Notes: generated by a model from the sequence alone, not told the origin. DNA of 64,000 nt from Bacilli bacterium (GCA_045130875.1 JBGUQI010000011.1:9828-73827); one strand, 5' to 3'; positions 8,389-47,138 are shown, numbered from the stretch's first letter. Numbers and translations: made by a program.

Positions 8389-8408
8389 ATCTCATAAACA
8401 TAACAAAA

Positions 8409-8436
8409 GACGGACCATAAGGCCCGTCCTTTTTAA
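8409..8436. terminator. Bidirectional rho-independent terminator between convergent genes
   Basis: GACGGACC-ataa-GGCCCGTC stem (7 of 8 bp). Flanked by AAAA on the left and CTTTTT on the right, so it has a U-tract in both orientations. Lies between the GH2 stop (8388) and the stop of 8451..11609. Confidence 0.75.
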
Positions 8437-8450
8437 CTATTTGATAGTTA

Positions 8451-11400
8451 TTATTTGACTAAACGTCTTCTTCTAATCACTAAGACAATACCTAATGCAG
8501 AAATCATTGTTAAGGCAGAAGCAACAATGATAATAATTGTTGCATTGCTCTTGCTAACGATACCAAATAAGGCACCAGCACCATTGGGTGTGAATGTACC
8601 AGCAGCGGCATCAAATGTTTCACCATTAGCAGCAGCCCAAGCAGCTAATCTAGCTTTCGCGGAAGCATAAGATGCATTTTCGTTGAAAATAGTTTTTTCT
8701 GAAGAACTTAAAGCGAGATATGCAGCTTTAGCATCAGCATAATAGGTTGCGCATGAACCGTTAGCGGAGTGATAGGAATACATCTTTAAGCTATCATGGA
8801 CTAAATTATTTAAGCCTTCAAAATAGGCATCGTATTCTGCTGTTAAATTGGAAATCAAGAATGAACCTTGGAAACCGAAGATACAGAAATTGAATCCAGT
8901 AACATCAGCGAAGGCGATGTTCAATGTATATGTATGTAATTGACCATCATCCACTAAATCGAGATCGAAGCAATAGTAATTTGTTCTATCTCTACTAACG
9001 AATTGAAGCATATAGGTCTTCGTAGGATCGGCGTCTTTATCAAAATACTCGCCGGTTGGAGTTAAGGAAGCGCCAACTTCAGTACCAGTACCAGTACCAG
9101 TATTTGTAATCATGTAGTTGAAGGTAACACTTCTTACAGCATGACCATAATTCTCTGCATAGTAATCGTTGCTACCAAGGTAGAATCTGAATTCACTCTT
9201 TGTGGCGGTCGAGCCAGTCTTTGTGAATAAGTAACCTGGATTACCATCGGTATCTTTTCTACAAAGCAATGTTTCTGGTGTTTGGTCAAGGCCTTTAATA
9301 GCAGTACCAGAAGCACCATTAGCTTTATATGTAGCAAGATTTCTCAAAAGGCTCTCAGATGGGAAATCATCTGGTGAAGCAACATCTAAGCCATCACGAA
9401 CTGTAGCAACATAATCTTCACCGACGTGTTTATAAGGAACATAAGAGTCAGATAAACAAGCGATTCCGGATTCGTATTTAACAGTAATCTTAGCACCAGC
9501 TAAGTAGCTGAAATATTTTGGATGGAGAATGATTTGAACACAGTCTTTATCCGTACCACCATCGTGTCCGGAGTATGTAATAACTGGTTTAGTTAATTTT
9601 GATGAAGTTGGAACGCCATCTGTATAACCATAAGCATCAAATGGGCTTAGAGCATAATCAGCGATAGCAATCTTGTCAGCAAATTCAGAGTTAATTTGAG
9701 AGATAGATTTTCCGTTAATAAAGATGTGCTCTAAGTTATACATATAAGGAGTCTTATCGGATAAGTTGTAGCCCCATCTAGTTTCATCATTAGTGAAGAG
9801 ATAAATATAACCAACACCAGTATTGGCTTCAACAAGCTGAGCATTTGTAAATGTATATTCTTTTGCTTCTTGTTCAGCAAGTTTTCCTGTACCTTCAATC
9901 AAGTAAAGGGTCTTATCATTTACTAATTTAGAAACCTTATTATCAGCATTAATCCAAGCAAAGTTCTTGGCAATTGTGACTGATTTAAGTGTTGAATCTG
10001 GAGTATAAGCTGCAAGAGCGGCTTTAGAAACATAAATAGACAAACGAATTAAGCCGTTATCTGTTCCGTGTTTTTTGAGTTCTAACAAAACAGATCTGGC
10101 ATAATTGTTACTCGCGGCTGGAGCACCAGCATCGAAATCATCACCATAAACTTGATGACCATCTCTAGTTTGCATACCGTTAATCACGGATGCTCTAACA
10201 CCATTAACTAAGATGGAGTCTAAGAGATATTCACAGTGATCAAGACACCATGTTTGTGTATATGATGAAGCTTTGATTGGAATATCGGTATAAACATTAA
10301 CTTTGTAGGATTTATTGTCGTTATGATTATCGATAAATTCACTATTACCTAAGAGGAAACTTTCATCGAATGTTTCATATTGAACATTCTTTGAATATTT
10401 CACGTGATGATAGAAGAAATCTGGTTGTGAACCATCTAAGTCAAAATCAGGTGAGAACACGATATCGTGTGCTAAACCATAATAGACACCATCTGTAGGA
10501 TTATAAGCATAGAAGTATTTGGCCTTTAATGTGATGGTAGCATCCATCCAAGAAAGGTAGTTTCTATGGATAAATAATTGCATTATTTGTGGAGAATTAA
10601 GGCTATTGCCATCTCTGATAAATTTAACAATCATTGGTCTATAGATTTTATTACTTGGGCCACCAGACACTGGCCATCTGCCACCATAACAATCTGCTTC
10701 AGCAACATCTAAATCTCTCCACTCTTCGAGTGTCTTATCACCAATGACGATACCTTTTTCAATATGAGTATAGATATCTCCACCTTCTGGTTGGGCTTCT
10801 TTTCTTCTGAATTGTCCGTAATGGTCATTTAAGAACACTTCTTTAGCGACTCCCAAAGGATTGCCTTCAGTAACATCGGCAGGATCAAAAACACCACCAT
10901 TTGTGTAGGCAACATTACCAAGGAAATCGTGACCTAAAGTAAATGTAAGGGATAAGTCATTATAATATGCTGAACTATTAAACTCATATTCAAGACTACT
11001 AAAGACTAAATCATCATCAATCGCAACATTTCCAATTGACCAGTGGTCAACTGCTTCAATTGAATGTGGCTCAATTTGTCTATGACCAAAAGTGTCTTGA
11101 GCTAAAGTGTAATAAGAAGCCGCACCACCTTGAACGTAGCTCAATGTTGGAATTCTAAAACCAGCTTTAAATTCCACTGTGTTAGCGGTTCCAGCGCCTT
11201 CTGGCATAAAAGCATAGAGTTGATGTCTAGTAAACATGTTGATATATGTTTGGCCAGAATGAACATTACGAGCAACACCATCAACGGTAAAATTGCCATA
11301 GCCGCCAATACCAGGAATGTGCACCTCTTCATCAACAGCAACCATGGGGGTGCCATCAACATCTGGGTAATCTAATGTTGTGCCATTAACGCCTTCAACC

Positions 11401-11786: not shown

Positions 11787-14060
11787 TTATTTCTTCTTTT
11801 TAATAACGATGAAGAGAATTAAATCCGCTGCCAAAGATAAGACTGCAAGGGAACAAATGACAATTAATGCAATAGTTAAAGCGGTTGTATTTTGTACATT
11901 ATTAGTGGTTGTCTTTGTGGCGCTCTCCCAAACTGCAGTTAGAACTAAATCTTTGGTCACTCTATTATTTATATTAAAGTGGTCACCATTTTGATCAACA
12001 TATCCTTGGAAGGCAAATCCTTCTTTTTGAGGAATCAAAACTTTCTCCACTTCTTTGACATCAGAAAGTCTGGTGTTATGCTCCACCATCACGGAGAATT
12101 CTTTATCAATATTTTTAAATTCTACGGAATAAGAATAAACATAAATACCAAAGCATTCTTTTCCAGAAGCGATTCTTAAATAGCCCACTAATTCTTCACC
12201 GGTTTCATCAACCCAATGGACAAATCTCTGTCTTTCATTATTGTCTCCTTGAGGAGCGCTTTCACTAAAGTCGAAAGTGGAACCATTAGACACTCTGATT
12301 GGATTCTTGCCATCAAACCACAATGTCCAATAAATCTTGCTATCTTCCACGAATTGTCCGTTTTGTTTACTATAGGATAAGGAAGATAAAACGTTATAAG
12401 AAACATAGCCACCATAGATTTCCATCGATATCGCGGAAGCCACTAAAGAAGGAACAGAGCATCCCTTACGAACGATAATTTCATTAACTTCATCAACACT
12501 GTTAAGTGGTACTGAAATAGATATGGTATCAGTTAAACCATCTAAATTAGCGTAAGCTTTCATCTCTTCCTGATTAAAGGAGTAGAATAAGGCTCTACCA
12601 TTAAGGTAGACATATCTAGTCATATTCTCACCTAAGGTGATAATTTCTTTATTACCTAAACCAGTATAATTGTCTTCACTTAGGCCAATATCTAATACCA
12701 CTGAATTGACATCAATCTCTTCAGTGTGAACATTGACTTTTCTAGCGGATAAGGAAGTGATTCTAATATCCGCAGCATTAAAGGCAAATTCTGATGTCGT
12801 GGACCATAAGACATATCTAAATGAACCAAGATTGACAGTAATATCATCAACCTGTTCATACCTCACTTCATTTTTAACTCCACCATTTGTGTATCTAAAA
12901 GCAGGGAATTGTGCTCCTCTTAAAATAGTGACAGAACTAATCATCTTAGCGTGATAGCTCACTTCGTTTTCATCCCAACGATTACCAATGTTGAAAACAA
13001 TGCAATTTAGTTCACCTCCAGCGTTATATGTTGGTAAACCTTTCCCGCTTAAGGGATTAGATACTTCTCTTAAGGTTAGTATCTCACCATCAACGGTCTT
13101 TAATAATACTTTTTCATACAAAGTATGAAGATAACTATCTTCCGCATCGGATAAATCAAATTTATCACGATTGACTGACACATTATATGTGCCATTTAAA
13201 TCGCTATTATAGTCATTATCTCCAAAGAAGATATAAAGACGGCAGGAACCATTATCGATATCCATCTTCTCAGTGCCATATTCATCTTCTTGGATATCAC
13301 CTCTTATTTGTAAACGATAGTCCTTAATATTAGTGTTTGGTTTAGGAGGCATAGTTTTAGAGAAAGCGGCGATAGGAAGAATCTCTGTTTCTCCAGTAGA
13401 TGGCTCATCTCCTCCATCATCATATTGAGTATAGGTTTGCTTGGTCCATTCAAAGGCATAGATGATGTTATCTTTTTCCACACCATAATCATTGTTCTTA
13501 AATGTTAATGTTTCTTTAATGACATATTTAGTGCTATGTGTGGAATCTGGATAAGGTAAAACAAATCCTTCTTCAAAAACTATCTTATAGATATCTTTAC
13601 ACTCTGGTTTCATGTTATTCAAAGTGAAGGTCACGTTTTGTGAAGCATCCGCTTTCGCGTTATAAAGTGCGGACCCACCACCTTGATAATAATAATCGAG
13701 AGTGCGGTAAGTATTCTCATTGGAATAGATACGAACCTTTGATAAATCAGTATCCACCATTTCACTTGCTGGGACCGGTTGATTAAAACCGATATCTTGA
13801 TAGAAAGAGGTATCCGGGAAGAGCATCAAATCTTTACTACGATAAGCGATGGAATAAACATCTGGACGATAATTTTCAGGAGATGTATAGGCTGGTCCTA
13901 AATCTTCACTTTGATTGGGATTATAGACACCTGGGCCTAAGTCTACATATTCAATATTCGTGGCAAAAGCCTCATTAATTTCAGAATTATGATGAAAAGC
14001 CACCACCGAAAGTGTGGTTAATAATGATCCGAGAATAATAAGAGAAATGTTCTTTTTCAT
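11787..14060 (-). CDS. Large membrane-anchored surface protein, family B modules + Listeria-Bacteroides-type (Flg_new-like) repeat + C-terminal TM anchor
   Basis: 757-aa ORF with signal peptide. Recurrent modules end in G-F/A-x-[LIF]-P (EEGFVLPYP, RGAQFPAFRY, KGCSVPSLV). GFAFQGYVDQNGDHFNINNRVTKDLVLTAVWE matches the Flg_new repeat pattern. C-terminus LIVICSLAVLSLAADLILFIVIKKKK. Starts 3 nt after the permease stop and is the last gene of the operon. Confidence 0.75.
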   Translation of the reverse strand: MKKNISLIILGSLLTTLSVVAFHHNSEINEAFATNIEYVDLGPGVYNPNQSEDLGPAYTSPENYRPDVYSIAYRSKDLMLFPDTSFYQDIGFNQPVPASEMVDTDLSKVRIYSNENTYRTLDYYYQGGGSALYNAKADASQNVTFTLNNMKPECKDIYKIVFEEGFVLPYPDSTHSTKYVIKETLTFKNNDYGVEKDNIIYAFEWTKQTYTQYDDGGDEPSTGETEILPIAAFSKTMPPKPNTNIKDYRLQIRGDIQEDEYGTEKMDIDNGSCRLYIFFGDNDYNSDLNGTYNVSVNRDKFDLSDAEDSYLHTLYEKVLLKTVDGEILTLREVSNPLSGKGLPTYNAGGELNCIVFNIGNRWDENEVSYHAKMISSVTILRGAQFPAFRYTNGGVKNEVRYEQVDDITVNLGSFRYVLWSTTSEFAFNAADIRITSLSARKVNVHTEEIDVNSVVLDIGLSEDNYTGLGNKEIITLGENMTRYVYLNGRALFYSFNQEEMKAYANLDGLTDTISISVPLNSVDEVNEIIVRKGCSVPSLVASAISMEIYGGYVSYNVLSSLSYSKQNGQFVEDSKIYWTLWFDGKNPIRVSNGSTFDFSESAPQGDNNERQRFVHWVDETGEELVGYLRIASGKECFGIYVYSYSVEFKNIDKEFSVMVEHNTRLSDVKEVEKVLIPQKEGFAFQGYVDQNGDHFNINNRVTKDLVLTAVWESATKTTTNNVQNTTALTIALIVICSLAVLSLAADLILFIVIKKKK

Positions 14061-14062
14061 AA

Positions 14063-14977
14063 TTACACCTTCAATCCCATTAATGCGATACCTTCAGTTA
14101 ATTGTTTTTGGAAGAAACCGAACAATATCGTTGTCGGTATCATCATCATAATGCCAGTGGCCATTTGACCATTTAAAATCAAGGGGTCACGTTTATCTTG
14201 GAAAGCTTCAAAAATAAGAAGTGCTAAAGTCTTTGGAGATGTGCTGGTTGTTAAATATAACAAAGGGGCACTATAGTCGTTCCATGTACCAATAAATGTG
14301 GTAACGGCTAAATATAATAAGATGGGTTTAATTAATGGAGTGATAACGGTAATCAAGATTTGGAAAGAGTTCGCACCATCAATCTTCGCGGATTCGTGTA
14401 AGCTCTTTGGAATGCCTCTCATGAACTGTCTCACTAAGAAGATGTTCATCGCACCACCACCAAACCAAATTGGAACCCATAAGGGGAATAAGGTATTAAC
14501 CCATCCAATCTTTTGATAGATGGTATATAAAGGAATAGAAGTCACTGTGCCTGGTAAGAACACTGTGGCTAAGATGATTAAAAACATTGCTCTTTGACCT
14601 TTGAAATAAACTTTAGTCAAACCGTAAGCGCAGAATGTCGCACCGGTTAAAATACCACAGATGCAGAGGATGCAGACTATTAAGGTATTGCCAATACCTT
14701 TAAAGAATGAGGCCCTCGAGAAGAAATCTTTATAACCATCTAAAGCAAAATCTTCGAGATGAGGAATGATATGTTGAGGTGCCACTGCAGCCATATTGTT
14801 TTGGAAGGAAACCACGATCATATAGACCACAGGGAACATGAAGAATAAGGCCATCAAAACTAAGATGGTATATCTTCCAATCAAACTTAAAATATGAAGA
14901 ATACGTTTCTTCTTACCATAGGTAACATCTTGAATACGAATCTTTTGCCACCTATTCATATTAATTGTCCTCCGCAT
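14063..14977 (-). CDS. Carbohydrate ABC transporter permease (MalG/AraQ-like)
   Basis: Polytopic membrane protein with EAA-loop region ESAKIDGANSFQILITVITPLIKP. Overlaps the upstream permease gene by 17 nt. Confidence 0.9.
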   Translation of the reverse strand: MRRTINMNRWQKIRIQDVTYGKKKRILHILSLIGRYTILVLMALFFMFPVVYMIVVSFQNNMAAVAPQHIIPHLEDFALDGYKDFFSRASFFKGIGNTLIVCILCICGILTGATFCAYGLTKVYFKGQRAMFLIILATVFLPGTVTSIPLYTIYQKIGWVNTLFPLWVPIWFGGGAMNIFLVRQFMRGIPKSLHESAKIDGANSFQILITVITPLIKPILLYLAVTTFIGTWNDYSAPLLYLTTSTSPKTLALLIFEAFQDKRDPLILNGQMATGIMMMIPTTILFGFFQKQLTEGIALMGLKV

Positions 14978-15902
14978 AGTAAACCCAATTACGGGAGGAT
15001 TTTAAAACGAGGAATGTGAGACCACCGATAACTAAGAACAATATCCAGCTATAAGCACTAGCTAAAGATATATCGTATTGTCCGGTATAGGCCGTTTCAT
15101 AAATCATTAAACCGACAAATCTTAAATCATTAGGTCGCCCATACTCCAAATATGTCGCATAAGAGGCAAATGATTGCAGATTAGCGATAATCGACATAAT
15201 CATGTTATAAAAAATCATTGAAGTCGATAATGGAATAGTAATATGGAATAATTGTGTGAAATAGCCCGCACCAGATAATCTCGCCTCTTCATATAAATCA
15301 TTGGGAATGTTTTTGAATTGAGCAAGCCACATAATCATACCACCCGAGAATCCCCAACCAGATAACGCAATCTGGGTTAAGAAGACGGTTTTGTTGTCGG
15401 TGTAGAATGTGAATGGATCAAATCCTAACTTTGTTAATATTAAGTTAAAATAACCAGTTTCCCTGGTAATACCATTCCACAATAAAGTGGAGGCAATCGC
15501 CGGGATTAAACATGGTAAATAGAATAAAATTCTAAAGGTCTTCATTCCTTTAATCTTTTGATTGAGGAGTAAAGCCACGATATATGAACCAATAAAGCTT
15601 ATTCCACCACAGACAAGTGTGTATCTAAAGGTGATGTAATAAGAATGGAACATATTGTTCCAATTATCCACAAAAGCGAATTTATAGTTCGCTAAAGTAA
15701 AGGAACCATAATCCATGTTTGGAGATAATAAGTCCACACGGACAAAGGAATAATATAAAGAAACTCCCATCGGTATGAAAGTAAAGATAAAGATACCTGC
15801 AAGAACAGGAATCATGTAGAGTAGATTGAAATAGTTGTCTTTAAAGTATTTCTTTCTACTGCTTAACTTTCGAGCGGTTAATATGGAGTTTCTTTTCTTC
15901 AT
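14961..15902 (-). CDS. Carbohydrate ABC transporter permease (MalF/UgpA-like)
   Basis: Six predicted TM segments; EAA loop EEARLSGAGYFTQLFHITIPL. Directly follows the SBP gene. Confidence 0.9.
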   Translation of the reverse strand: MKKRNSILTARKLSSRKKYFKDNYFNLLYMIPVLAGIFIFTFIPMGVSLYYSFVRVDLLSPNMDYGSFTLANYKFAFVDNWNNMFHSYYITFRYTLVCGGISFIGSYIVALLLNQKIKGMKTFRILFYLPCLIPAIASTLLWNGITRETGYFNLILTKLGFDPFTFYTDNKTVFLTQIALSGWGFSGGMIMWLAQFKNIPNDLYEEARLSGAGYFTQLFHITIPLSTSMIFYNMIMSIIANLQSFASYATYLEYGRPNDLRFVGLMIYETAYTGQYDISLASAYSWILFLVIGGLTFLVLKSSRNWVYYAEDN

Positions 15903-15903
15903 C

Positions 15904-17382
15904 CTATGCGTCCCTTAACGCTTTGTTTGTATCGTTAATAGCTTTAGTTAATAAATCGTTATAAGAAGTGGTTTTGGGAGAAAATAAATCTCTAAAGAAT
16001 GGAGTTATGCACTCTTTTCTTAAAGCATTACGTGCAGCTGGATTAGCAAAGCAGAAGGTATCTAAGAGTAATTCTTTAGCGGTGGAGAACGCTAAATTAT
16101 CAATCTTACCATCATAAGAAGTAACCCATTTACCTTCAGTGGCTAATTCCTTTAAAACGGGTTGAACATAGCCTTCTTTACCAGCGGCATTTTGGCCTTC
16201 TTTAGAAATGATATATTTAATGAAATCCCAACAGAGATCAACGGTCTTAGCTTCTTCACCAGAAGTGAGTTTTTGCACTTGGTTAGCTTTATCCACCAAG
16301 ATGCCATAACCACCACAACCGGCAGCGACATATTCAGCGGGAAAATTAACCGCACCTAATTCGAGATTCACTTTTTTATAAGCACCAAAGAAGTTACCAA
16401 CTTCAGGATAGGAAACCATAACGCAAAAGACGTTGTGGAGTTTGAAATTATCATTACCATAATCGGTATCGATCATATATGGGTGAGCATTTTTACCAAA
16501 ATCAGTAATGATTTTATTGTAGGCCGCGATATTTGCATCACTACCGAGGTTCACTACTGTTTCACCATAGTCATTCATCGCGAAGATACCATCTCCACCA
16601 AGCTCTTTCATAATCGTGGTATAAACAGGTTCCCAGGTGTGGTTAAGTTCACAAGCTCTATAACCTAAGTCACCATTGGAATTTAAGGTTGCACATTTAT
16701 CAGAGATGTTTTGTAAGGCTTTGACAAAGGTGGTCCAATTCCATTCAGTACCTTCACCTATTCTTGTGAACAAGTTCTTTAAGGAGTCTTTATTCCAATT
16801 AGCCTTTTCTTCTTCAGTGGCAAATTGTTCTTTAAATAAAGAAACATTGCATAATAATGCCGGCATATTATATTCACGAGGAGCGAAATAGACACCATAT
16901 TGAGGATCGTTACTCTTCTCACATTCATAAGGCCCAGTATAACTTTCTGTGGGTCTAAATTCCCCATAGAAAGATGTTAAATCTAACATTGTGGAATAAT
17001 AATTTGAATAATCTGTTTCTGGGAAAGCTTCATAATAAGGTCTTAAGTCAACGAAGTTCTTCTTTTGCGCTAGATTAGCGGTGGTATCATCCGTGGTATA
17101 GATGATATTAGTCAAAGCATTTCTATTTAAAGCATTCTTCATGACATATTCTTCCGAAGAACCTTCCACACCACCCCAACCAGAGACATTGATTCTCACA
17201 TTGGGATGTGTTTCTTCATATTCCTTCTTCCAAATGTTAAGCATTTCTTGCTCAGACACCAAACTTCTTGCAGAAATAGAGATTTCAAATTTGTCTTTCT
17301 TTTTGCTACATCCTGTTAGTCCTCCAACAGCGCATATTGCTGCAAGAGCGACTCCAAATACTAGTTTTTGTTTCATATTCAT
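15904..17382 (-). CDS. Sugar ABC transporter solute-binding lipoprotein (family 1)
   Basis: Lipobox GGLTGC-SKKK. 492 aa. Immediately upstream of two CUT1 permease genes. Confidence 0.85.
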   Translation of the reverse strand: MNMKQKLVFGVALAAICAVGGLTGCSKKKDKFEISISARSLVSEQEMLNIWKKEYEETHPNVRINVSGWGGVEGSSEEYVMKNALNRNALTNIIYTTDDTTANLAQKKNFVDLRPYYEAFPETDYSNYYSTMLDLTSFYGEFRPTESYTGPYECEKSNDPQYGVYFAPREYNMPALLCNVSLFKEQFATEEEKANWNKDSLKNLFTRIGEGTEWNWTTFVKALQNISDKCATLNSNGDLGYRACELNHTWEPVYTTIMKELGGDGIFAMNDYGETVVNLGSDANIAAYNKIITDFGKNAHPYMIDTDYGNDNFKLHNVFCVMVSYPEVGNFFGAYKKVNLELGAVNFPAEYVAAGCGGYGILVDKANQVQKLTSGEEAKTVDLCWDFIKYIISKEGQNAAGKEGYVQPVLKELATEGKWVTSYDGKIDNLAFSTAKELLLDTFCFANPAARNALRKECITPFFRDLFSPKTTSYNDLLTKAINDTNKALRDA

Positions 17383-19510: not shown

Positions 19511-20353
19511 CTAAACATCCTCCTTTTCTTTTTTCACATGCATTCCCTTTTTCACTAAGTGAGGGAAGCGAATAGAATTAATGTGTTTATCAAATATCCT
19601 CATCTCGTTTAGCTGCACCCCAAGGAACACTAAGGGGAGGATGAAAATCACCACAATTAGTAAAACTAAATATTTGGTTAAGAGGGCAATAATGTTAGCG
19701 AATTGGAACAAGTCATAAGCTTTAAATCCAACGATCAAAATAATGCATAAAAGTGTGGTTGGAAGATGCTTGAAATAGAAGAAACAACCAACTTTAAAAT
19801 TGTCCCAATATTTATTTGTATAAATAAAATTAATAAACACAGTATGCATGATGATGGGGAAGAAAACCGCGACATTAAAGCCAAAAGGTATAGCCATAAT
19901 CCATCCACTATCGGTGAAGTGGAATATCACATTAAAAATCAAATTGAGTATCGCCACCATCAAAGCGGATATCAATGTTGGCTTAATATTGTCTTTAACT
20001 CCGGACTTAAAATCAGTACCAAAGAAGACTGGTTCTAACCACACATATTCACGATATATTTTTCCAAATCCTGCAATAGGTATTGCTAAAAGCAATATCA
20101 ATGCAGTTTCAATAGCAATACAAGTAATTAAAATTGTGGCATTAGAATTGCCTGTTTCATGAGCGATGATATAGGAATAATCTTTAAAGAAATTCACCAC
20201 GAATAGAGGTATCGCAAAAGCAAAGAGAATTAATCCAATCTTTAGGAAAGAGAAGTAATGTAGCTTTAAAACATCAAAGAACACTTCTCTTCGATTCTTA
20301 GGAAGATTATCTTCCGTAAATGCTTGTTTGGAATATAGATCATTTCTTCTCAT
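19511..20353 (-). CDS. Polytopic membrane protein, YesL/DUF624-like (paralog of 38208..39029)
   Basis: About 6 TM segments. The N-terminus YSKQAFTEDNLPKNRREVFFDVLKLHYFSFLKIGLILFAFAIPLF aligns with YSKAMLPRTRKAQFGDCFKMNYAVILKCGLMLLLFFTPLM of the paralog. Both lie downstream of a short MalK-like ATPase gene. The DUF624 assignment is from memory only. Confidence 0.5.
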   Translation of the reverse strand: MRRNDLYSKQAFTEDNLPKNRREVFFDVLKLHYFSFLKIGLILFAFAIPLFVVNFFKDYSYIIAHETGNSNATILITCIAIETALILLLAIPIAGFGKIYREYVWLEPVFFGTDFKSGVKDNIKPTLISALMVAILNLIFNVIFHFTDSGWIMAIPFGFNVAVFFPIIMHTVFINFIYTNKYWDNFKVGCFFYFKHLPTTLLCIILIVGFKAYDLFQFANIIALLTKYLVLLIVVIFILPLVFLGVQLNEMRIFDKHINSIRFPHLVKKGMHVKKEKEDV

Positions 20354-20933
20354 AATTTAGAAGCTCTTTGGTAAACGTAAGTGCGGTATCAAACTTGGAA
20401 TTATTTAATCCCTTAATGTGTTTGGAATTAACTCGATAGAAGAGGTAATAATTCTCATCTTCATATTTGTCATTAATTAAGCTAATTAAAGTGGAGTCAT
20501 TTTCCCCTTTCTTGTGATAGAGAATCCCTCTATTTAAGTCCTCTGTTTCATATGCAAAATAAGGAGACACAACATCGGATTTAAGTTCCGCGAATTGCTT
20601 GGTTAATAAATCCTTATCCATCCTGCTTTCAGGTAATAAGAAGATATCCGCTTTATTGAGGCCTTTATTGACCATATAATAATCAAAATCACTGGAATGA
20701 GGATTTACACTAGTGATATTGATTTCTCTAAGATAATCTGGAGATTTTTCCTTAAGGAAAGAGAATAAGGCTTCGTTATTCGTGGAGTAGTTACAAATGA
20801 ATAATGAAATGGTCTCTTCATTTCTCGGCATGTTAATGAAATCGCAATAATAAATCGTTCCCACGACTGATACAGCAATGAGAAGCAAATAGACATACCA
20901 GAATTTAAGGATGGCTTTTAATGTTCTATTCAT
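20340..20933 (-). CDS. Hypothetical membrane-anchored protein (N-terminal TM/signal anchor + ~165-aa extracytoplasmic domain)
   Basis: 197-aa ORF with N-terminal hydrophobic helix FWYVYLLLIAVSVVGTIYY. Overlaps both neighbours (8 nt and 14 nt), implying translational coupling. No family recognised. Confidence 0.6.
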   Translation of the reverse strand: MNRTLKAILKFWYVYLLLIAVSVVGTIYYCDFINMPRNEETISLFICNYSTNNEALFSFLKEKSPDYLREINITSVNPHSSDFDYYMVNKGLNKADIFLLPESRMDKDLLTKQFAELKSDVVSPYFAYETEDLNRGILYHKKGENDSTLISLINDKYEDENYYLFYRVNSKHIKGLNNSKFDTALTFTKELLNYEKK

Positions 20934-21426
20934 CTTGAGCCTCCTTAATATCGACGATGAAGTTCACCGCTAAAGTGACTTCGACTTTATCATCAACTTT
21001 AAAGTTCAAAGGAAGATTGGCTTCATAGAAGCAATTGATGGTTTTCCCCTCATCATCAATAGCCACTATTTCATATGCCATAATAGATTTACGGACTAAA
21101 TATGGTTCTCTAATTTCTTTGATAACCAAAACGCCTTCAAATCTCTCAACCGTTAATAATCGATATAGGAATTGGTTTCGTCTCTTTAACGGAATATAGA
21201 CAACCAAGATAATAATTGCTCCAGTGATTAAAGAAAGAGATAAGATGATGGCGTCAAAAACTTTTATCAGTAAAACGTTTTTATTATTGATTAAAAAGGC
21301 ACTCAATCCAAAGAATAATAAACCCATAAAAATGATTAAAATCGCCGAAATTAGCCACAATTTGTAGCTTTTTTTCATTTTTTCGTAGGTTTCTTTGGAA
21401 TAATAACTACTTGGCATAATCATCAT
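20926..21426 (-). CDS. Hypothetical 2-TM protein with a cytoplasmic beta-rich (OB/TOBE-like?) C-terminal domain
   Basis: 166 aa. K-rich N-terminus, two TM helices, then KRRNQ followed by FEGVLVIKEIREPYLVRKSIMAYEIVAIDDEGKTINCFYEANLPLNFKVDDKVEVTLAVNFIVDIKE. Start overlaps the ATPase gene by 20 nt. Confidence 0.6.
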   Translation of the reverse strand: MMIMPSSYYSKETYEKMKKSYKLWLISAILIIFMGLLFFGLSAFLINNKNVLLIKVFDAIILSLSLITGAIIILVVYIPLKRRNQFLYRLLTVERFEGVLVIKEIREPYLVRKSIMAYEIVAIDDEGKTINCFYEANLPLNFKVDDKVEVTLAVNFIVDIKEAQDE

Positions 21427-22138
21427 TTTGTATCAACGCTTTAATCGTTGGATGTTCACTTTTATATAATTCTTCTGAACTACCAGAAAAGATAATCTTT
21501 CCCTCATCCATGACAAAGATATGGTCCGCTAATGAAGTGGCTTCTTGTATTGAATGAGTCACATAAACAACGCTAGCGTGGTACTTTCTAATTGTTTCTA
21601 ATAAGAGGTGCTTGCCTTCATTTCTACCAACTTGATCTAAGTTAGAAAATGGTTCATCAAAGAAATAGAATGTAGCATTCTTAATAAGCGCTCTGGCAAT
21701 CGCGGTTCTTTGAGCTTGACCAATGGATATATGTCTGGGTTTACGAGATAAGCATTCGCTGATATGTAACTCATTAGCAAGTTCATTAACCTTATCGACA
21801 ATTACGGATTTTTCCATTCCTTTTATCCTTAAAGGATAAGCAATATTTTCAAATACCGTTGCGTGAGGTTGTAAAACAATGTCTTGAGAGACATAGGCAA
21901 AGTTTCTTTCTCCAATGTCATAATCATAGATATCCACACCATCTAAAGTGATATCGCCCTCATAAGGGATTAATCCTAATAAAGTTCTTAACAATGTGGT
22001 TTTACCACATCCAGATGGACCGATGATGACACTAAAATCTCCATCTTTAAAAGTCAAAGACAAACCATCGATAGCTTTGACTGTCGTCTTTTTATTCTTT
22101 AAGGTAACGGATAGATTGTTTACGACTATTTCAGACAT
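21407..22138 (-). CDS. ABC transporter ATP-binding protein, MalK/MsmX-like but lacking the C-terminal regulatory domain
   Basis: Walker A GPSGCGKTT; Q-loop VSQDIVLQPH; signature region RKPRHISIGQAQRTAIARAL (LSGGQ replaced by ISIGQ); Walker B FYFFDEPFSNLD; H-loop VTHS. Only 243 aa. Confidence 0.9.
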   Translation of the reverse strand: MSEIVVNNLSVTLKNKKTTVKAIDGLSLTFKDGDFSVIIGPSGCGKTTLLRTLLGLIPYEGDITLDGVDIYDYDIGERNFAYVSQDIVLQPHATVFENIAYPLRIKGMEKSVIVDKVNELANELHISECLSRKPRHISIGQAQRTAIARALIKNATFYFFDEPFSNLDQVGRNEGKHLLLETIRKYHASVVYVTHSIQEATSLADHIFVMDEGKIIFSGSSEELYKSEHPTIKALIQNDDYAK

Positions 22139-26152: not shown

Positions 26153-26920
26153 CTAAATGTTTCCCTCTAATTCTTTCTTCACTCGATAGTAAGTGCTGGG
26201 AGAGGAAAAACCACATTGATATAAAATTTCAGATTGACTGAGATTTAATGATTTATCCAATAATAGTTCATTAGCTCTTTTAATTCTTAAAGAATTAATA
26301 TAAGACCTAACACCGTTTTTTAAACATTTCTTTAATGTTTTGGAACAATATTCAGGAGTATATCCCAAATCATGAGCCATAGACATAACAGTGATATCTT
26401 CTAAATAATGCAAATGAATATACCTGAGTAATTCTTTTAATAAGATGTCACCTTGGTATTCACCACGTTCCACTAAATTATATTTATTTATTAATAATGA
26501 TAATAAAACACTAGCTTGTCCTTGATTGTATAGTTGTGTCTTATTATCGGAAGAAACCCATTCTTTCATTACATGAAAGAGTTCTTTATTTTTCTCTTTA
26601 TCAAGTAAGAATGGTTCGAACGTTAAACCAGGATAAAGAGTTCTAAAAGTTTGAGTGTAGTCTCTAGATAAAACAAGAACAAACGCCAAGATGTCATCAC
26701 TTGCCTCATAAAAATGAGTTTGATAACTTTCAACAAAGAAAATATCTCCTTCATGAAGAGTCATGGTTTCGTTATCCAAATGACAAACTGCGTATCCTCT
26801 TTTAATGAAGATAAATTCCATACTGTCATGGAAATGAGGATTGTCACCTAAAAGATTATCTTCTTTTAAATAGATAGCAGATGAAAGATCGGCTTCTAAA
26901 CAATATTGTGTTTGTTCCAT
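26153..26920 (-). CDS. AraC/XylS-family transcriptional regulator (cupin + HTH), first gene of the long minus-strand operon
   Basis: Cupin HFHDSMEFIFIKRGYAVCHLD...EGDIFFVESYQTHFY. HTH region MSMAHDLGYTPEYCSKTLKK ... QCGFSSPSTYYRVKKE. Confidence 0.85.
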   Translation of the reverse strand: MEQTQYCLEADLSSAIYLKEDNLLGDNPHFHDSMEFIFIKRGYAVCHLDNETMTLHEGDIFFVESYQTHFYEASDDILAFVLVLSRDYTQTFRTLYPGLTFEPFLLDKEKNKELFHVMKEWVSSDNKTQLYNQGQASVLLSLLINKYNLVERGEYQGDILLKELLRYIHLHYLEDITVMSMAHDLGYTPEYCSKTLKKCLKNGVRSYINSLRIKRANELLLDKSLNLSQSEILYQCGFSSPSTYYRVKKELEGNI

Positions 26921-31047: not shown

Positions 31048-32616
31048 TTATTTATTCCAGTCAAAATTAACTTTTTTGCCATCAATTAGCCATTCATTAG
31101 GTAATGGATTTTCCACCCAATCAACGGGTTCTAATGAGTGATATTCAAGATTGATTTTTAAAGCTTTATTCAAATCTTCTTTAATCTCTTTAGTGGCCTT
31201 ATTTGGATCACAAGAAATAAAGAGGGGGGAATTAGAATACGCTAAAGCGTAGAGCCATTCTCTATTCTTCTTCCAGTCAATTAATCCCATATGACCAACA
31301 CAGTCACCATCAATCTTATAAAAAATATCATTTTGCATTATTCTAAAAGCTAATGAATTAACTCCATATCTCACTGTTCTATTCCAATCTCTACCAGAGA
31401 TATCATCGCCAGTACGATTGAGTTCAGTTATTCCTGCACATAGATGTGAAAATGTATCGCAGCCAATTAAGATGGCTTTATCACCCGCTGCATCTCTGAT
31501 GGTTTGATAAAATTTCAAAATAGTTTCTGCGTTGGTGAAATGATTGTCTTTATATCTCCAACCTTGGTCGGTGAGATTGTCATCCATTTGATAACCATAA
31601 CGACAGAACATATCATAGGTGACATAGTCAAATTTAATTAATTCAAAACCCCAATCCACAAAACGCTTGATATCATCACTTACTCTTTTGAGAGTAAATT
31701 CATCTGTTGGATCTAAGAATAATAAATTATATGGATGATTATGTCCTCTAGAGATATAACTTGCTTCATATAAAGGTCTAAACCATAAGCCAGGTTTAAT
31801 ACCTAATTTCTTAATCTCGGAAGCTAAGACTTTCATATCCTTATATAAAGGATTTGGTACCCATGGTCCCGCACAATGGTTAAGTTGCCAACCATCATCA
31901 ATAACCATAAAAGGTTTAACAGGAATATCTTTAGTAACTTCCACTAATAACTTGGTGTCAGCAAGAATTTGTTCATAACTAGAATCGCCATAAGCATAGT
32001 ACCAGTTGTTAAATCCATAAACCGGTTCTTTAAGTTCTTTCTTTTTGACATCACCCATCAAAAGTTTGACAAAATCCCTGCAAGAAGCGAATAAATTGTC
32101 ATATTTTCCTTCTTTTTGCACAAAAGTACCAGCATTAAGGATTCTTCCTTCAAGGTTGACACCGCTACCACCAGATTGGGTATTCACATCGATACGTAAG
32201 AGGTTATCGATAATTCTAAATGAGATAATTGCATGGGGTTGGACACAAACACCATAAGAAGACAATTCTTTCTTCTTTTGATCGTTTACAAAGAAATACC
32301 AGAACATCTGTCTTGGCTCATCAATATTTCTCCACGCCATATCGGCGTAGCCTCTTTCAATAGAGTCTCCAAAAACTTTTAAGTCGTTGTTATGTTTAAA
32401 GTCATAATAGAGGTATAGGTGAGAGATTAAAGATTCTTTCGCAATCAATAATAAATCCACACCATGCTTTGATTGTTTAAATTCAACTTCGATATCTTTA
32501 TAAGAAGCTTTACCATCTTTAAAAGATATTCTGATGCTTTCCACACCATCAATAGAGAGTTCACCATGAAGGGGATGTAAGTAATTAAGGTTTTGTATCA
32601 TAGTAATGACCTCCAT
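31048..32616 (-). CDS. Alpha-galactosidase-like glycoside hydrolase (GH36/GH27 clan D type)
   Basis: KPFMVIDDGWQ, GIKPGLWFRP, WGFELIKFDY and GCDTF resemble the clan GH-D catalytic barrel. No signal peptide. Confidence 0.55.
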   Translation of the reverse strand: MEVITMIQNLNYLHPLHGELSIDGVESIRISFKDGKASYKDIEVEFKQSKHGVDLLLIAKESLISHLYLYYDFKHNNDLKVFGDSIERGYADMAWRNIDEPRQMFWYFFVNDQKKKELSSYGVCVQPHAIISFRIIDNLLRIDVNTQSGGSGVNLEGRILNAGTFVQKEGKYDNLFASCRDFVKLLMGDVKKKELKEPVYGFNNWYYAYGDSSYEQILADTKLLVEVTKDIPVKPFMVIDDGWQLNHCAGPWVPNPLYKDMKVLASEIKKLGIKPGLWFRPLYEASYISRGHNHPYNLLFLDPTDEFTLKRVSDDIKRFVDWGFELIKFDYVTYDMFCRYGYQMDDNLTDQGWRYKDNHFTNAETILKFYQTIRDAAGDKAILIGCDTFSHLCAGITELNRTGDDISGRDWNRTVRYGVNSLAFRIMQNDIFYKIDGDCVGHMGLIDWKKNREWLYALAYSNSPLFISCDPNKATKEIKEDLNKALKINLEYHSLEPVDWVENPLPNEWLIDGKKVNFDWNK

Positions 32617-33569
32617 TATTTATGATTTATCAAAGATAAATAGTAATCATACATCCTATCTACCCATCCATCAGCGAGTTCCCCTTTTGCCACACCCCAT
32701 CCGTGTGCGTCACTATCAAAATGTTCAAAGCGATAATCAATACCGCTATCTTCTAAAGCTTTAATCATTAACTGACTATTTTCATAAGGAACGCAACTAT
32801 CTCTTTCGCATTGCCACATAAAGACATTTGGATAATCTTTTCCAACATGTAATTCAATAGAATATTTATCTTCCTCTTCTTTAGAAGGATTGTCACCTAG
32901 TAAGGTATGTTTCGTTCCTGGTTCCGCATATTCTTTCATTGTTATGACTGGATAAACTAAACCTAATAATTTGGGTTTTGGATAATCATTAATACCTAAA
33001 TTATCGGTTCCTGATAAAGCGGCAAGATGGCCCGCTGCGGAACAACCAATAACTATATAATCATCCATATCTATATTCATTTGTTCTTTATTTTCAAATA
33101 AGAAAGCCACAAAATCCTTAAGCGCATCAATTGCGGTTTTAGATTTATCCCCTATTGGATAACTAAAGGAAAAAACATTCATTCCTTTTTTATGAAGTTC
33201 CACACTTGTGGGTGTATCTTCCACTAAAGTGCAAACCGCAGTGTAACCGCCACCAGCCATGACAATCGCCACCTTGGCTTTCTTGTCTTGCCTTAAACCC
33301 ATCACTGTATAATTGCTTTTTTGAAGATATGTTAATTGTTTCTTATAAGATAAGTCTCTCAAATAATTGAGTGAATCAATCATTGCCTTTCTCGGCCAAA
33401 TAGGACATTGGTCCATTATTTTCACTTTATAGGTTTCTTCATTTTGAGGAATATAAGAACAAACATGATAAAAATAGGTATTTAAACAAGGATCATTTCT
33501 AAAAGAATCAAAAGTTGATTCCTCGTTATAATACTTGGTATTGGAATAATTATCGTTTAGTTTGACCAT
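32616..33569 (-). CDS. Alpha/beta-hydrolase, probable carbohydrate (acetyl) esterase
   Basis: Oxyanion-type VAIVMAGGGY. Nucleophile elbow VIGCSAAGHLA. Late D and H (ERDSCVP, DAHGW). Confidence 0.65.
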   Translation of the reverse strand: MVKLNDNYSNTKYYNEESTFDSFRNDPCLNTYFYHVCSYIPQNEETYKVKIMDQCPIWPRKAMIDSLNYLRDLSYKKQLTYLQKSNYTVMGLRQDKKAKVAIVMAGGGYTAVCTLVEDTPTSVELHKKGMNVFSFSYPIGDKSKTAIDALKDFVAFLFENKEQMNIDMDDYIVIGCSAAGHLAALSGTDNLGINDYPKPKLLGLVYPVITMKEYAEPGTKHTLLGDNPSKEEEDKYSIELHVGKDYPNVFMWQCERDSCVPYENSQLMIKALEDSGIDYRFEHFDSDAHGWGVAKGELADGWVDRMYDYYLSLINHK

Positions 33570-36340: not shown

Positions 36341-37177
36341 TTATTTCTTATAAACTATATCAAAAATAAACTTTGAAGCTTCTTTTACCCAAATAGAATT
36401 AGGTTCTGCTTCTTCCATATATGGTTCGTAATCTTGATATACTCCTCTACTGAATAAGGATCCACCATGAACACCTTTTTCAAATAGAGAATATTGATAT
36501 GGAACACCAGCTTTCTTTAAAGCTTTGGTGAATCTCTCAGCGTTTTCTGGAGGAACACAGGTATCAGTTTTTGTAGAGAAGATATAAACTGGTGGGCAAT
36601 CTGGTGTTACATGATTTTCTAAAGAAAGTTTTTCCATTAAATCTTCTTTTAAACCAGTGATATTAGTGACTGTTGTCCATTCACCGACACCTTTTTCTGT
36701 AGAAACAACGGGATACGCCATAATTGTAGCGGTGGGTTTTACTTTTTTAGGATCAATACCTAATGATGCCGCAATCTCTTTATAATATAAAGCCACAGAA
36801 CCCACTAAATGACCTCCTGCGGAAAATCCCATAATTGATGGGTTATCATCAGTAAGATGGAATTCTTTTTGATGTTCCTTAATATAATTAAGAGCGAATA
36901 CTACTTCTCTTTGAGGAATAGGATATTCACGCTCACAAGAATATCTGATGACAAAAGTATTAAAACCTTCGGTTAAGAATCTTAAGGCTACTGGTTCACC
37001 TTCCCTATCAGAACAATATTGATAAGCCCCTCCTGGGCAGATTAATAATGCAGGTCTTGGAAAAGCGGGATCATATCTCACTTCATTTAAAAAATGAAGT
37101 TCATAATATTCTAGTGTGGCCGCGGAATCCTTGAACACTGGAGATAAATCTCTTAAATAGAACTTCTTGTAAATCAT
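36341..37177 (-). CDS. Alpha/beta-hydrolase, probable carbohydrate esterase
   Basis: LLICPGGAYQY oxyanion region. Nucleophile elbow MGFSAGGHLV. Late D/H (KTDTCVP, GVHGGS). Confidence 0.65.
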   Translation of the reverse strand: MIYKKFYLRDLSPVFKDSAATLEYYELHFLNEVRYDPAFPRPALLICPGGAYQYCSDREGEPVALRFLTEGFNTFVIRYSCEREYPIPQREVVFALNYIKEHQKEFHLTDDNPSIMGFSAGGHLVGSVALYYKEIAASLGIDPKKVKPTATIMAYPVVSTEKGVGEWTTVTNITGLKEDLMEKLSLENHVTPDCPPVYIFSTKTDTCVPPENAERFTKALKKAGVPYQYSLFEKGVHGGSLFSRGVYQDYEPYMEEAEPNSIWVKEASKFIFDIVYKK

Positions 37178-47137: not shown

Positions 47138-47138
47138 A

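Follow-up and report, generated by a model that had tools for sequence, protein, structure and literature searches.

Tail-less MalK-like ATPases linked and fused to YesL-like membrane proteins in a rumen Bacilli bacterium: a candidate auxiliary subunit of CUT1 importers

Introduction

In two importer cassettes of a Bacilli bacterium from the rumen, the gene for a short ATPase lies apart from the permease genes and overlaps a gene for a membrane protein. The question is what a polytopic membrane protein has to do with the ATPase of an importer that has its own pair of permeases. An earlier note on this DNA, made from the sequence, took the polytopic proteins to be YesL-like (DUF624) and proposed that they form a physical complex with the ATPase. 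In Bacillota and Actinomycetota, a great many operons for sugar utilisation encode DUF624/YesL proteins, their function is so far unexplained, and we found no functional study of them in the literature searched. We examine here the homology of the parts, their linkage across genomes, their natural fusions, and their predicted structures.

Gene arrangement of cassettes B and C

The window is a 64,000-nt stretch (GCA_045130875.1 JBGUQI010000011.1:9828-73827) of a 1.64-Mb genome. All six ORFs of the two modules are on the minus strand, at the coordinates where the earlier note had placed them, and are given here with the importer genes of the same gene strings.

14063-17382, minus strand: cassette B CUT1 core, with the substrate-binding protein (SBP) at 15904-17382 and permeases at 14961-15902 and 14063-14977; Pfam SBP_bac_1 and BPD_transp_1
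19511-20353, minus strand: six-TM polytopic protein of cassette B, 280 aa, paralog of 38208-39029
20340-20933, minus strand: 1-TM (bitopic) protein of cassette B, 197 aa, studied by AF2 and Foldseek
20926-21426, minus strand: 2-TM hairpin protein of cassette B, 166 aa, with zero sequence matches in Pfam, NCBIfam and PDB
21407-22138, minus strand: ATPase of cassette B, 243 aa, Pfam ABC_tran at 4.4e-30
26153-26920, minus strand: AraC-family regulator heading the gene string of cassette B, Pfam AraC_binding and HTH_18
38208-39029, minus strand: six-TM YesL-like protein of cassette C, 273 aa, overlapping the ATPase gene by 20 nt
39010-39750, minus strand: ATPase of cassette C, 246 aa, a truncated MalK-class NBD with the signature LSIGQ
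45312-48746, minus strand: cassette C CUT1 core, with the SBP at 47139-48746 and permeases at 46214-47137 and 45312-46214

The overlaps that had been described, of 20, 8 and 14 nt for the three junctions of cassette B and of 20 nt for cassette C, are reproduced when the longest ORFs are used. The 166-aa gene has more than one possible start (ATG ATG ATT ATG), and its overlap with the ATPase gene can be read as 20, 17 or 11 nt. Cassette C and a further copy just outside the window, paralog A, have an identical ATG...TAA overlap with a Shine-Dalgarno-like site (GGTGG/GAGTGGG) 8 nt upstream, and an AAGGAGG ribosome-binding site precedes the 197-aa gene.

Separation of the ATPase gene from the permease genes, also described before, holds in both cassettes: the permeases of cassette B (14063-15902) are five genes downstream of the ATPase, and those of cassette C (45312-47137) are three genes upstream of it. 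For the cassette B permeases, the only MalK-type NBD nearby is the truncated one, 5.8 kb off. The cassette C permeases are recognised by six-frame PF00528 matches at C11:55175-55693 and C11:56251-56664, equal to window positions 45348-45866 and 46424-46837, and the orthologous SBP and permeases in two other loci (L009, L010) have Pfam matches. Hence both cassettes have the arrangement by which CUT1 importers are recognised at the operon level, an SBP_bac_1 lipoprotein and two BPD_transp_1 permeases with an NBD in the same gene string. An AraC-type regulator adjoins the module also in two distant loci (L003, L005). A link of the module to surface proteins, which had been raised as a possible role, finds no support.

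The truncated ATPases

Both window ATPases have GlcV, UgpC and MalK as their best NCBIfam models, over the NBD part only; the matches end early, at profile positions 2-232 of about 357, and score far under the cut-offs. The sequences stop at 243 and 246 aa, lacking both the FVAxFIG motif and the OB_MalK/TOBE tail. The earlier description of a short MalK-like ATPase is thus accurate, with the C-terminal regulatory tail as the part that is missing. Walker A, the Q-loop, Walker B with the catalytic Glu, and the H-loop are all in place, and the truncated NBDs retain the Walker A, DEP, H-loop and Q-loop/helical-subdomain sequence typical of the MalK class; in the cassette B ATPase, Walker A (GPSGCGKT), DEP and the H-loop (YVTHS) are intact. 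In place of LSGGQ the signature is ISIGQ in cassette B and LSIGQ in cassette C, and across module NBDs it is [LIV]S[IGLYP]GQ, mostly LSIGQ. Full-length NBD paralogs in the same genome have both the OB_MalK/TOBE domain and the canonical LSGGQ. The B and C ATPases share 43% identity, and orthologs of the cassette C ATPase hold the identical place in L009 and L010, directly ahead of the polytopic gene. Judged by these sequence features, the window ATPases are assigned to the MalK/MsmX class of CUT1 NBDs, without the C-terminal regulatory OB/TOBE domain. MsmX is the multitask ATPase of B. subtilis, which serves CUT1 type I importers (PMC5730181, PMC7658222).

Homology and predicted structure of the polytopic proteins

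The 280-aa and 273-aa proteins are paralogs (30% identity, E = 3e-30). The N-terminal motif that had been proposed for them is exact in both copies as P..R...F.D..K..Y...LK.GL.L..F..PL, while the spacing of its 'YSK....' prefix differs between them. Neither has a family match in Pfam or NCBIfam, and for Pfam DUF624 (PF04854) nothing is found with the two proteins at E <= 10, nor in a six-frame scan of the genome. Against the gathering score of 24.2 bits, paralog A scores 19.7 bits, and a relative from the same genus, at 27.9 bits, is above the cut-off. When 25 members of the polytopic family are compared by hhalign with 15 proteins above the Pfam DUF624 cut-off, the families align with a probability of 97.6% (E = 4.5e-12, 160 columns). 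The label "YesL-like (DUF624)" is therefore upheld by profile-profile comparison, though not by the Pfam model itself, which is blind to the window copies.

MusI_fam (NF052431), with a cut-off of 160 bits, gives weak matches to two polytopic genes of the genome, the polytopic half of a fusion described below (22.6 bits) and paralog A (12.4 bits), and nothing at E <= 0.1 to the window copies. From these profile relationships we assign the polytopic proteins to a long, unannotated branch of a DUF624/YesL/MusI superfamily. The branch comprises about 1,500 clusters at 50% identity, and the 273-aa protein has 106 homologs, all without annotation. Scanning for related loci with the single protein gave one locus, from a rumen Bacilli MAG. 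In other genomes, the cytoplasmic C-terminus of the polytopic protein is found fused to BD-FAE esterase or DUF6259 domains.

The AF2 model of the 273-aa protein has eight helices with a pLDDT of 87.8 and a pTM of 0.84. No PDB fold matches it at E <= 0.001, and the top candidates there are hCTL1 (E = 0.68) and CysZ (TM-score 0.45-0.51). A known ABC TMD fold (types I-VII) was considered and rejected, with ABC TMDs among the matches listed scoring TM 0.15-0.20, and MlaE, EcfT and S-component folds are not among the Foldseek matches of the model. Conservation is 0.61-0.65 on the predicted cytoplasmic segments vs 0.37-0.45 outside, and 7 of the 9 invariant residues fall in these predicted cytoplasmic segments.

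Linkage and fusion of ATPase and polytopic protein

Conserved adjacency, the point on which the proposed coupling had been staked beforehand, is what we find. Every polytopic copy in this genome adjoins an ABC NBD (8/8). Among 30 loci of the same GTDB family from other genomes, an NBD is within 1.5 kb in 28, and in 30/30 after widening. Because the linkage recurs in all copies here and in all the related genomes sampled, the adjacency is far beyond chance. It is kept across 26 genera while the gene order is permuted, as NBD-2TM-1TM-POLY, POLY-NBD-2TM-1TM, 2TM-1TM-POLY-NBD, and NBD-POLY, and such permutation is the mark of a functional unit and not of operon inertia.

The two proteins are also found as one polypeptide. 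This genome has an NBD-polytopic fusion of 509 aa, whose 10 full-length orthologs are 62-81% identical to it; an assembly artefact was considered for it and is ruled out, these orthologs coming from independent assemblies. The NBD at its front puts the N-terminus of the polytopic part in the cytoplasm. There is a distant fusion of the same kind, of 532 aa and 31% identity, and in Lachnospiraceae a full-length MalK-type NBD with TOBE is joined to a classical Pfam DUF624 domain. The Lachnospiraceae gene comes straight after two BPD_transp_1 permease genes and ahead of a second MalK-type NBD, and is therefore inside a CUT1 importer operon. In total, at least three separate NBD-YesL fusion events have occurred in two classes of Bacillota. 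Taken as Rosetta-stone evidence, the fusions lend support to the physical complex of ATPase and membrane protein that the earlier note had proposed.

It might be asked if the two genes are simply co-expressed, the YesL-like protein having an unrelated membrane job such as lipid or cell-envelope upkeep on glycans and never touching the ATPase, with adjacency a product of cassette duplication. The eight paralogous cassettes of this genome may indeed have been copied as blocks, but the survival of the linkage through permuted orders in so many genera, and the repeated joining of both proteins in one chain, make this very improbable.

Relation of the module to the CUT1 permeases

The main point of interest is whether the pair belongs to the importer or is a machine of its own. 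We give a probability of about 0.5 to the reading in which the polytopic YesL-like protein is an NBD-binding auxiliary membrane subunit of the CUT1 importer encoded in the same gene string, comparable to MusI. For six permease pairs of this genome, B and C included, the truncated polytopic-linked NBD is the sole NBD nearby, at 2.8-5.8 kb on the same strand. In 17 of 24 loci of the same class, a classical DUF624 gene comes straight after CUT1 permease genes, which ties the superfamily to CUT1 importers generally. PMC13008276, which cites Henrich 2013 (J Bacteriol 195:2573), describes MusI as a novel membrane component of MusEFGK2I, the maltose importer of C. glutamicum, and as essential; MusI is reported to be needed for uptake by an unknown mechanism.

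The main rival to the auxiliary subunit is an autonomous ABC machine, in which the YesL-like protein and its NBD, perhaps joined by the 2-TM and 1-TM proteins, would make up a transporter or mechanotransducer of their own. The YesL-like protein would then be a new TMD, the fusion a half-transporter in NBD-TMD order, and the CUT1 permeases would be powered by full-length MsmX-like ATPases. The NBD-6TM fusion does have the appearance of a half-transporter, overlap of an ATPase gene with a membrane protein gene is typical of NBD-TMD pairs, and the four-part make-up loosely recalls MlaFEDB or NikMNQO-type systems. Several observations count at once for this rival and against the subunit. Two of the eight modules here lack a BPD_transp_1 gene on their contigs (C41 and C43). 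Wider regions from relatives have no permease within 6 kb in 18 of 20 cases, with permeases at 8-17 kb in G177 and G179. In two loci (L066, L074) the truncated module NBD and a full-length MalK-type NBD adjoin, which hints at separate jobs for the two. OB_MalK NBDs, which could serve the permeases, are found in 47/47 module genomes, none of the 47 having the module without a full-length MalK-type NBD. For the rival it also counts that several CUT1 permease pairs of this genome are without a nearby NBD, which shows that ATPases are shared. The MusI_fam match, being very weak, is a further point against the subunit. Furthermore, the two permeases of a type I importer fill both coupling grooves of the NBDs, so the YesL-like protein would have to bind the NBD elsewhere.

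Against the autonomous machine, its NBD is of the MalK class, for which the known partners are EAA-loop permeases, and the confident AF2 model fits no known ABC TMD fold. Classical DUF624 genes come without a dedicated NBD, the Lachnospiraceae fusion sits within a permease-permease-NBD operon, and six CUT1 operons of this genome would be left with no local NBD. MusI, as the precedent, supplements an importer that is otherwise complete. On balance we consider an autonomous machine unlikely.

The 2-TM and 1-TM proteins

The two small membrane proteins of cassette B, 2-TM and 1-TM, recur in about two thirds of related loci; in this genome the 2-TM protein occurs only in the three four-part modules, and 5 of the 8 modules, cassette C among them, are without both. 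The 166-aa protein has a K-rich N-terminus and a beta-rich C-terminal domain of ~85 aa, predicted to be cytoplasmic by the positive-inside rule; 20 sequences of its family were aligned. That it might be a detached TOBE domain finds no support in the sequence, hhalign giving 0.3% against the C-terminal domains of 19 full-length NBDs. It is also found with full-length NBDs (C43-type loci) and is missing from most truncated-NBD modules, so its presence is untied to loss of the regulatory domain.

The 197-aa protein, with 35 homologs of which none is annotated, has an N-terminal TM anchor and an alpha/beta domain of ~160 aa predicted to be outside the cell. AF2 models it with a pLDDT of 90.4 and a pTM of 0.80. 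Nearly all of the best 50 Foldseek matches in PDB are SBPs (FbpA, PotD/F, MBP, CbpB, GltA), with probabilities of 0.9-0.96 but E >= 7e-3, over about 100-120 columns or roughly one lobe of the two-lobed, hinged class-II fold. The ectodomain is thus predicted from its model to resemble one lobe of a class-II substrate-binding protein, that is, to be half-SBP-like; a sequence-profile search of PDB found no SBP relation. In such searches with the 1-TM and 2-TM families, a YwqG match was marginal and taken as chance, and there was otherwise nothing.

These proteins bring up a sensing role, in which the half-SBP-like ectodomain would sense substrate or SBP occupancy and throttle the ATPase, or the module would signal instead to the AraC-type regulator, or would serve as a tether for cytoplasmic enzymes at the importer exit. 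An SBP-lobe-like ectodomain and a cytoplasmic beta domain are the sort of parts to be expected, AraC regulators recur beside the module, polytopic C-termini elsewhere carry the esterase or DUF6259 fusions, and the NBDs have no regulatory domain of their own. However, no signalling domains are recognisable, the 2-TM beta domain is unrelated in sequence to the MalK regulatory domain, and since most modules here dispense with both small proteins, sensing is not the core role. We rate a regulatory device as decidedly unlikely as the explanation of the module, although it overlaps with an auxiliary subunit and does not exclude one.

Proposed role and significance

Each tail-less ATPase is co-translated with its YesL-like protein, and if the latter is an auxiliary subunit, both would serve the SBP and two-permease importer of the gene string. 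The conserved cytoplasmic face of the six-helix protein, formed by the N-terminal LP..R..F.D helix, the W.E...DF..GIK.N loop, and the C-terminal FD..IN...YP...GL tail, would hold the ATPase at the membrane beside the permease pair, and the protein may assume the dimer-stabilising or regulatory role of the domain that the NBD has lost. Where present, the half-SBP-like ectodomain protein and the 2-TM beta-domain protein could relay the outside state, of SBP or substrate, to the ATPase.

A broader proposal is that CUT1 importers generally have a fifth, hitherto unrecognised class of subunit in the YesL/DUF624/MusI-like proteins, which would act through the ATPase, docking MalK/MsmX NBDs by their cytoplasmic face and recruiting or gating them, including the shared multitask ATPases of Bacillota. 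The rumen lineage would have gone furthest, with an NBD that has lost its regulatory domain and depends on its partner, and with the half-SBP and 2-TM proteins it would have a control line from the outside to the ATPase; in a bolder variant, the six-helix protein is a new ABC TMD fold. We offer this as a possibility, and a rather doubtful one.

The fusions and the strict linkage turn a family of unexplained function into a concrete, testable claim, that DUF624/YesL proteins bind the importer ATPase. MusI is the one studied relative, of which the literature searched says only that it is "essential". The rumen lineage offers a simplified system, in which a tail-less NBD has a partner dedicated to it, nature has joined the two in a single chain, and about 1,500 sequence clusters provide material. 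If true, the claim adds a new subunit class to the textbook type I ABC importer, and has a bearing on the way in which glycan degraders of gut and rumen divide shared MsmX-type ATPases among their transporters.

Comparison with known systems

The module ATPases share with MsmX, UgpC and the MalK of MalFGK2 the NBD class, Walker A and B, Q-loop, D-loop and H-loop, as well as gene strings with SBP_bac_1 and two BPD_transp_1 genes. They differ in lacking OB_MalK/TOBE, in the altered signature, and in a gene that is apart from the permeases and overlaps a YesL-like gene.

Like classical DUF624 proteins, the polytopic branch has six TM helices, an F..fK.N motif after TM2, and in some members an FDKYI-like C-terminal tail. 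It is longer, at 265-310 aa against 200-230 aa, and has in addition an LP..R..F.D helix at the N-terminus and, on the outside, a long hairpin. Its members always adjoin an NBD, whereas 0 of 22 classical DUF624 genes do so within 1.5 kb; and the window copies follow the ATPase or small membrane genes and not, in the classical manner, the permeases.

MlaFEDB and the group-I ECF systems CbiMNQO and NikMNQO, ABC systems to which small membrane subunits are added, are loosely alike in composition: beside the NBD and a polytopic protein there is a bitopic one, with its domain outside, and a small accessory protein. We find no relation to them in sequence or fold, and the module NBD is placed by its sequence in the MalK class and not in that of MlaF or EcfA.

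The likeness to MusI is that an extra polytopic membrane protein is encoded with a CUT1 sugar ABC importer. The difference is that here the NBD to which the polytopic protein is coupled or fused is a truncated one, and that the unit often includes another two membrane proteins.

Gene layout of the cassettes

The coupling of ATPase and membrane protein genes in the sugar-importer cassettes is confirmed: the open reading frames (ORFs) lie where the earlier note had placed them, all on the minus strand, and the overlaps of 20, 8 and 14 nt in cassette B and 20 nt in cassette C are reproduced with the longest ORFs. Because the 166-aa gene has an ambiguous start, its overlap with the ATPase gene could be 11, 17 or 20 nt. 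The features concerned are as follows.

Cassette B
26153-26920, minus: AraC regulator, first in the direction of transcription, then an oxidoreductase and a 903-aa surface protein
21407-22138, minus: ATPase, 243 aa (Pfam ABC_tran), after the 903-aa surface protein
20926-21426, minus: 2-TM protein, 166 aa
20340-20933, minus: 1-TM protein, 197 aa
19511-20353, minus: polytopic (YesL-like) protein, 280 aa
17388-19445, minus: lipoprotein, 685 aa, between the YesL-like gene and the substrate-binding protein (SBP) gene
15904-17382, minus: SBP
14961-15902 and 14063-14977, minus: two BPD_transp_1 permeases
11787-14060, minus: last gene, 757-aa surface protein with TM segments at both termini

Cassette C
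47139-48746, minus: SBP, then two permeases, a 1005-aa protein, a DUF4838 lipoprotein and a Big_2 lipoprotein
39010-39750, minus: ATPase, 246 aa (Pfam ABC_tran), after the Big_2 lipoprotein
38208-39029, minus: polytopic protein, 273 aa, directly after the ATPase

Cassette A
351-1982 and 3-344: SBP and permease end
contig C11:1076-2678, just upstream of the window: truncated nucleotide-binding domain (NBD; 247 aa, LSLGQ) and YesL-like gene (292 aa)

Pfam has no match for the 685-aa lipoprotein or the 757-aa protein of cassette B. The NBD and YesL-like genes of cassette A have the same 20-nt overlap as those of cassette C, and the 2 junctions share an identical ATG...TAA arrangement with a Shine-Dalgarno-like site upstream.

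Linkage of the polytopic family to an ABC ATPase

The source genome (1.64 Mb, 71 contigs, 89% complete), from an uncultured member of the Bacilli of the rumen or gut, has 8 copies of the polytopic family and all 8 adjoin an ABC NBD. The order is NBD, 2-TM, 1-TM, polytopic in cassette B and on contig C18, and NBD then polytopic in 4 copies (cassettes A and C, contig C41, and C11:186520). One copy is a single 509-aa NBD-polytopic polypeptide (C11:168920-170449), and on contig C43 the order is 2-TM, 1-TM, polytopic and then a full-length 629-aa NBD. Across the same GTDB family, the polytopic family is found in 48 of 151 genomes, representing 26 of 48 genera, and no genome has more than 8 copies. 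The adjacency that the earlier note had called conserved is so in these genomes as well, with an NBD no more than 1.5 kb from the polytopic gene in 28 of 30 loci, each from a different genome, and present in the remaining loci when the region is widened. Relatives have the 4 components in cyclically permuted orders, with the NBD truncated or full-length; the entire layout is retained in cassette C orthologs, and the four-gene unit is retained even in distant metagenomic homologs at 30-34% identity.

Outside the window, the C41 module is followed by a 691-aa surface protein (C41:21554-23629, minus) that ends in a cysteine-bearing tail, ...SNKGGCGGS, a hydrophobic helix and KKRKQD. Before the C43 module (C43:1018-6018) are a CBM-rich 893-aa lipoprotein, a GH130-like cytoplasmic protein and a 430-aa lipoprotein, assigned by eye, the last with a C-terminal half resembling an SGNH/GDSL esterase, also by eye.

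The truncated ATPases

The best NCBIfam models for both window ATPases are GlcV, UgpC, WtpC, PotA and MalK, but the matches end near position 230 of profiles about 350 long and score less than half of the cut-offs. Both therefore belong to the MalK class of NBDs but lack the C-terminal OB/TOBE regulatory domain, and the description "short MalK-like ATPase" stands. They retain Walker A, a DEP Walker B, the Q-loop region and the H-loop, with a signature of ISIGQ or LSIGQ. All 23 short NBDs linked to a module (230-254 aa) lack the tail and fit the signature pattern [LIV]S[IGLYP]GQ, whereas 19 full-length paralogs (426-747 aa) all have LSGGQ, except one with MSGGQ, and all but one have the FVAxFIG motif that precedes the tail.

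Among the full-length MalK-type NBDs, those of 625-747 aa (contigs C3, C43 and C68, and relatives such as loci L079-L083) have a C-terminal region roughly double the normal length, which seems to be built from repeated OB/TOBE-like modules. In others, of 426-483 aa, either the last beta domain is preceded by a coiled-coil-like insert rich in lysine and glutamate, or the N-terminus has a K/E-rich extension.

The polytopic protein

The cassette B and C polytopic proteins are paralogs (30% identity, E = 3e-30). Pfam and NCBIfam give no matches for these 2 proteins and 23 homologs, and a six-frame genome scan with PF04854 did not detect the window genes. By hhalign, 25 family members align to 15 proteins of the same class above the Pfam DUF624 cut-off with a probability of 97.6% (E = 4.5e-12, 160 columns), and one same-genus paralog scores above that cut-off at 27.9 bits. 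The label "YesL-like (DUF624)" is therefore correct as a statement of remote homology. The branch is a large, unannotated one: clustering at 50% identity leaves 1,544 representatives with E <= 1e-3, of which 562 reach E <= 1e-30. In the confident AF2 model (pLDDT 87.8, pTM 0.84), residues 19-29 form an amphipathic helix and long helices span 31-65, 70-107, 114-149, 154-180, 185-198, 200-218 and 221-262. Foldseek finds no significant match to it in the PDB, the best being hCTL1 (E = 0.68) and CysZ (TM-score 0.45-0.51); ABC membrane domains score a TM of 0.15-0.20.

Fusions and topology

The 509-aa polypeptide (C11:168920-170449, minus, outside the window; equivalent to L085:2421-3950) joins a truncated MalK-class NBD with signature LSPGQ to a YesL-like six-helix domain through a linker of about 20 residues, and an SBP and 2 permeases are encoded downstream. 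It has 10 full-length orthologs at 62-81% identity in independent assemblies, which rules out an assembly error as its source. A second fusion has 532 aa and 31% identity. In Lachnospiraceae, a fusion of 591-592 aa (8001-9776 in each of 3 loci, L090, L091 and L093) has a full-length MalK-type NBD, with LSGGQ and the OB/TOBE tail, followed by a C-terminal classical DUF624 domain that Pfam recognizes. Its genes lie 12 nt behind 2 BPD_transp_1 permease genes, and downstream come a 452-aa gene, whose product has no Pfam match, and a second, ordinary MalK-type NBD. This operon suggests a heterodimeric NBD pair with a membrane domain on one partner only.

Fusion of the NBD to the polytopic N-terminus places that terminus in the cytoplasm, and 6 TM helices bring the C-terminus back to the same side. 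Measured as majority-residue frequency, conservation peaks in the segments predicted to be cytoplasmic (0.61-0.65) and reaches its minimum outside (0.37-0.45), and 7 of 9 invariant residues are on the predicted cytoplasmic face. Residues L15, P16, R19, N125, D255 and N259 are among the invariant ones. In relatives, the predicted cytoplasmic C-terminus is extended by a BD-FAE esterase in 2 genomes or by a DUF6259 domain of about 690 aa (L065:5086-6864, L066:5248-7041, L067:210-3113). In the window, the first 2 genes that follow the cassette C polytopic gene, at 36341-37177 and 32616-33569, encode free-standing BD-FAE esterases.

The 2 small membrane proteins

Members of the 2-TM and 1-TM families accompany the polytopic gene in about two thirds of the loci sampled, and in the source genome these families have no copies beyond the modules. 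Positive residues precede the N-terminal anchor of the 197-aa protein, so its domain should face outside. Nearly all of the best 50 Foldseek matches to its AF2 model (pLDDT 90.4) are class-II SBPs (FbpA, PotD/F, MBP, CbpB, GltA, TMBP), with probability 0.9-0.96 over about 100-120 aligned columns and E >= 7e-3. On this model, the domain resembles one SBP lobe, below formal significance. The 166-aa protein combines 2 TM helices with a beta-rich domain of about 85 aa that is predicted to be cytoplasmic. That this domain is a detached MalK TOBE domain is unsupported by sequence (hhalign 0.3%), nor does the presence of the protein track NBD truncation.

Which transporter the truncated NBD serves

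The earlier note's interpretation is supported overall, and the physical complex of ATPase and membrane protein that it proposed gains support from the natural fusions. At a probability of about one half, we read the YesL-like protein as an auxiliary membrane subunit that binds the ATPase of CUT1 importers (SBP plus 2 BPD_transp_1 permeases), acting here with a tail-less NBD; the contact, the binding surface and the effect on transport are what we infer. Two observations favor service to the neighboring importer: for six permease pairs in the source genome, including those of B and C, the sole nearby NBD is a truncated one, encoded on the same strand at a distance of 2.8-5.8 kb, and the truncated NBD retains MalK-class Q-loop and helical-subdomain sequence.

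The main rival, in which the module is an ABC machine complete in itself and built on a novel type of membrane domain, appears rather unlikely. Several observations are neutral or go against service to a neighboring importer. Permease genes are absent from contigs C41 and C43, and C43 has no SBP gene either; 18 of 20 wider regions of relatives have no permease within 6 kb, while in genomes G177 and G179 the permeases are 8-17 kb from the module. Truncated and full-length NBDs occur together at loci L066 and L074, and full-length OB_MalK NBDs are present in 47 of 47 module-bearing genomes. Several CUT1 pairs in the source genome have no nearby NBD, so shared ATPases exist. A sensing or regulatory role of the four-part module is compatible with the auxiliary subunit and the autonomous machine alike.

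Comparison with DUF624 and MusI

Our literature search found no functional study of DUF624 or YesL. The polytopic branch is 265-310 aa long versus 200-230 aa for classical DUF624, which lacks the branch's extra N-terminal LP..R..F.D helix and its long outside hairpin. Among 24 classical DUF624 loci of the same class, 17 have a CUT1 permease gene directly upstream, and hence the superfamily as a whole is associated with CUT1 importers; a MalK-like NBD within 1.5 kb was found in none of the 22 loci checked. The classical branch thus sits behind the permeases, and the long polytopic branch at the ATPase.

A membrane protein of such an importer, MusI, is described in PMC13008276, citing Henrich et al. 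2013, as of unknown function and as a novel, essential component of the Corynebacterium glutamicum maltose importer MusEFGK2I. The NCBIfam model MusI_fam, which scores above its cut-off in C. glutamicum as a positive control, matches exactly 2 of the polytopic genes in the source genome, and weakly, at 22.6 and 12.4 bits against a cut-off of 160. The polytopic proteins are therefore not members of the MusI family; they are remote relatives, probably in the same role class.
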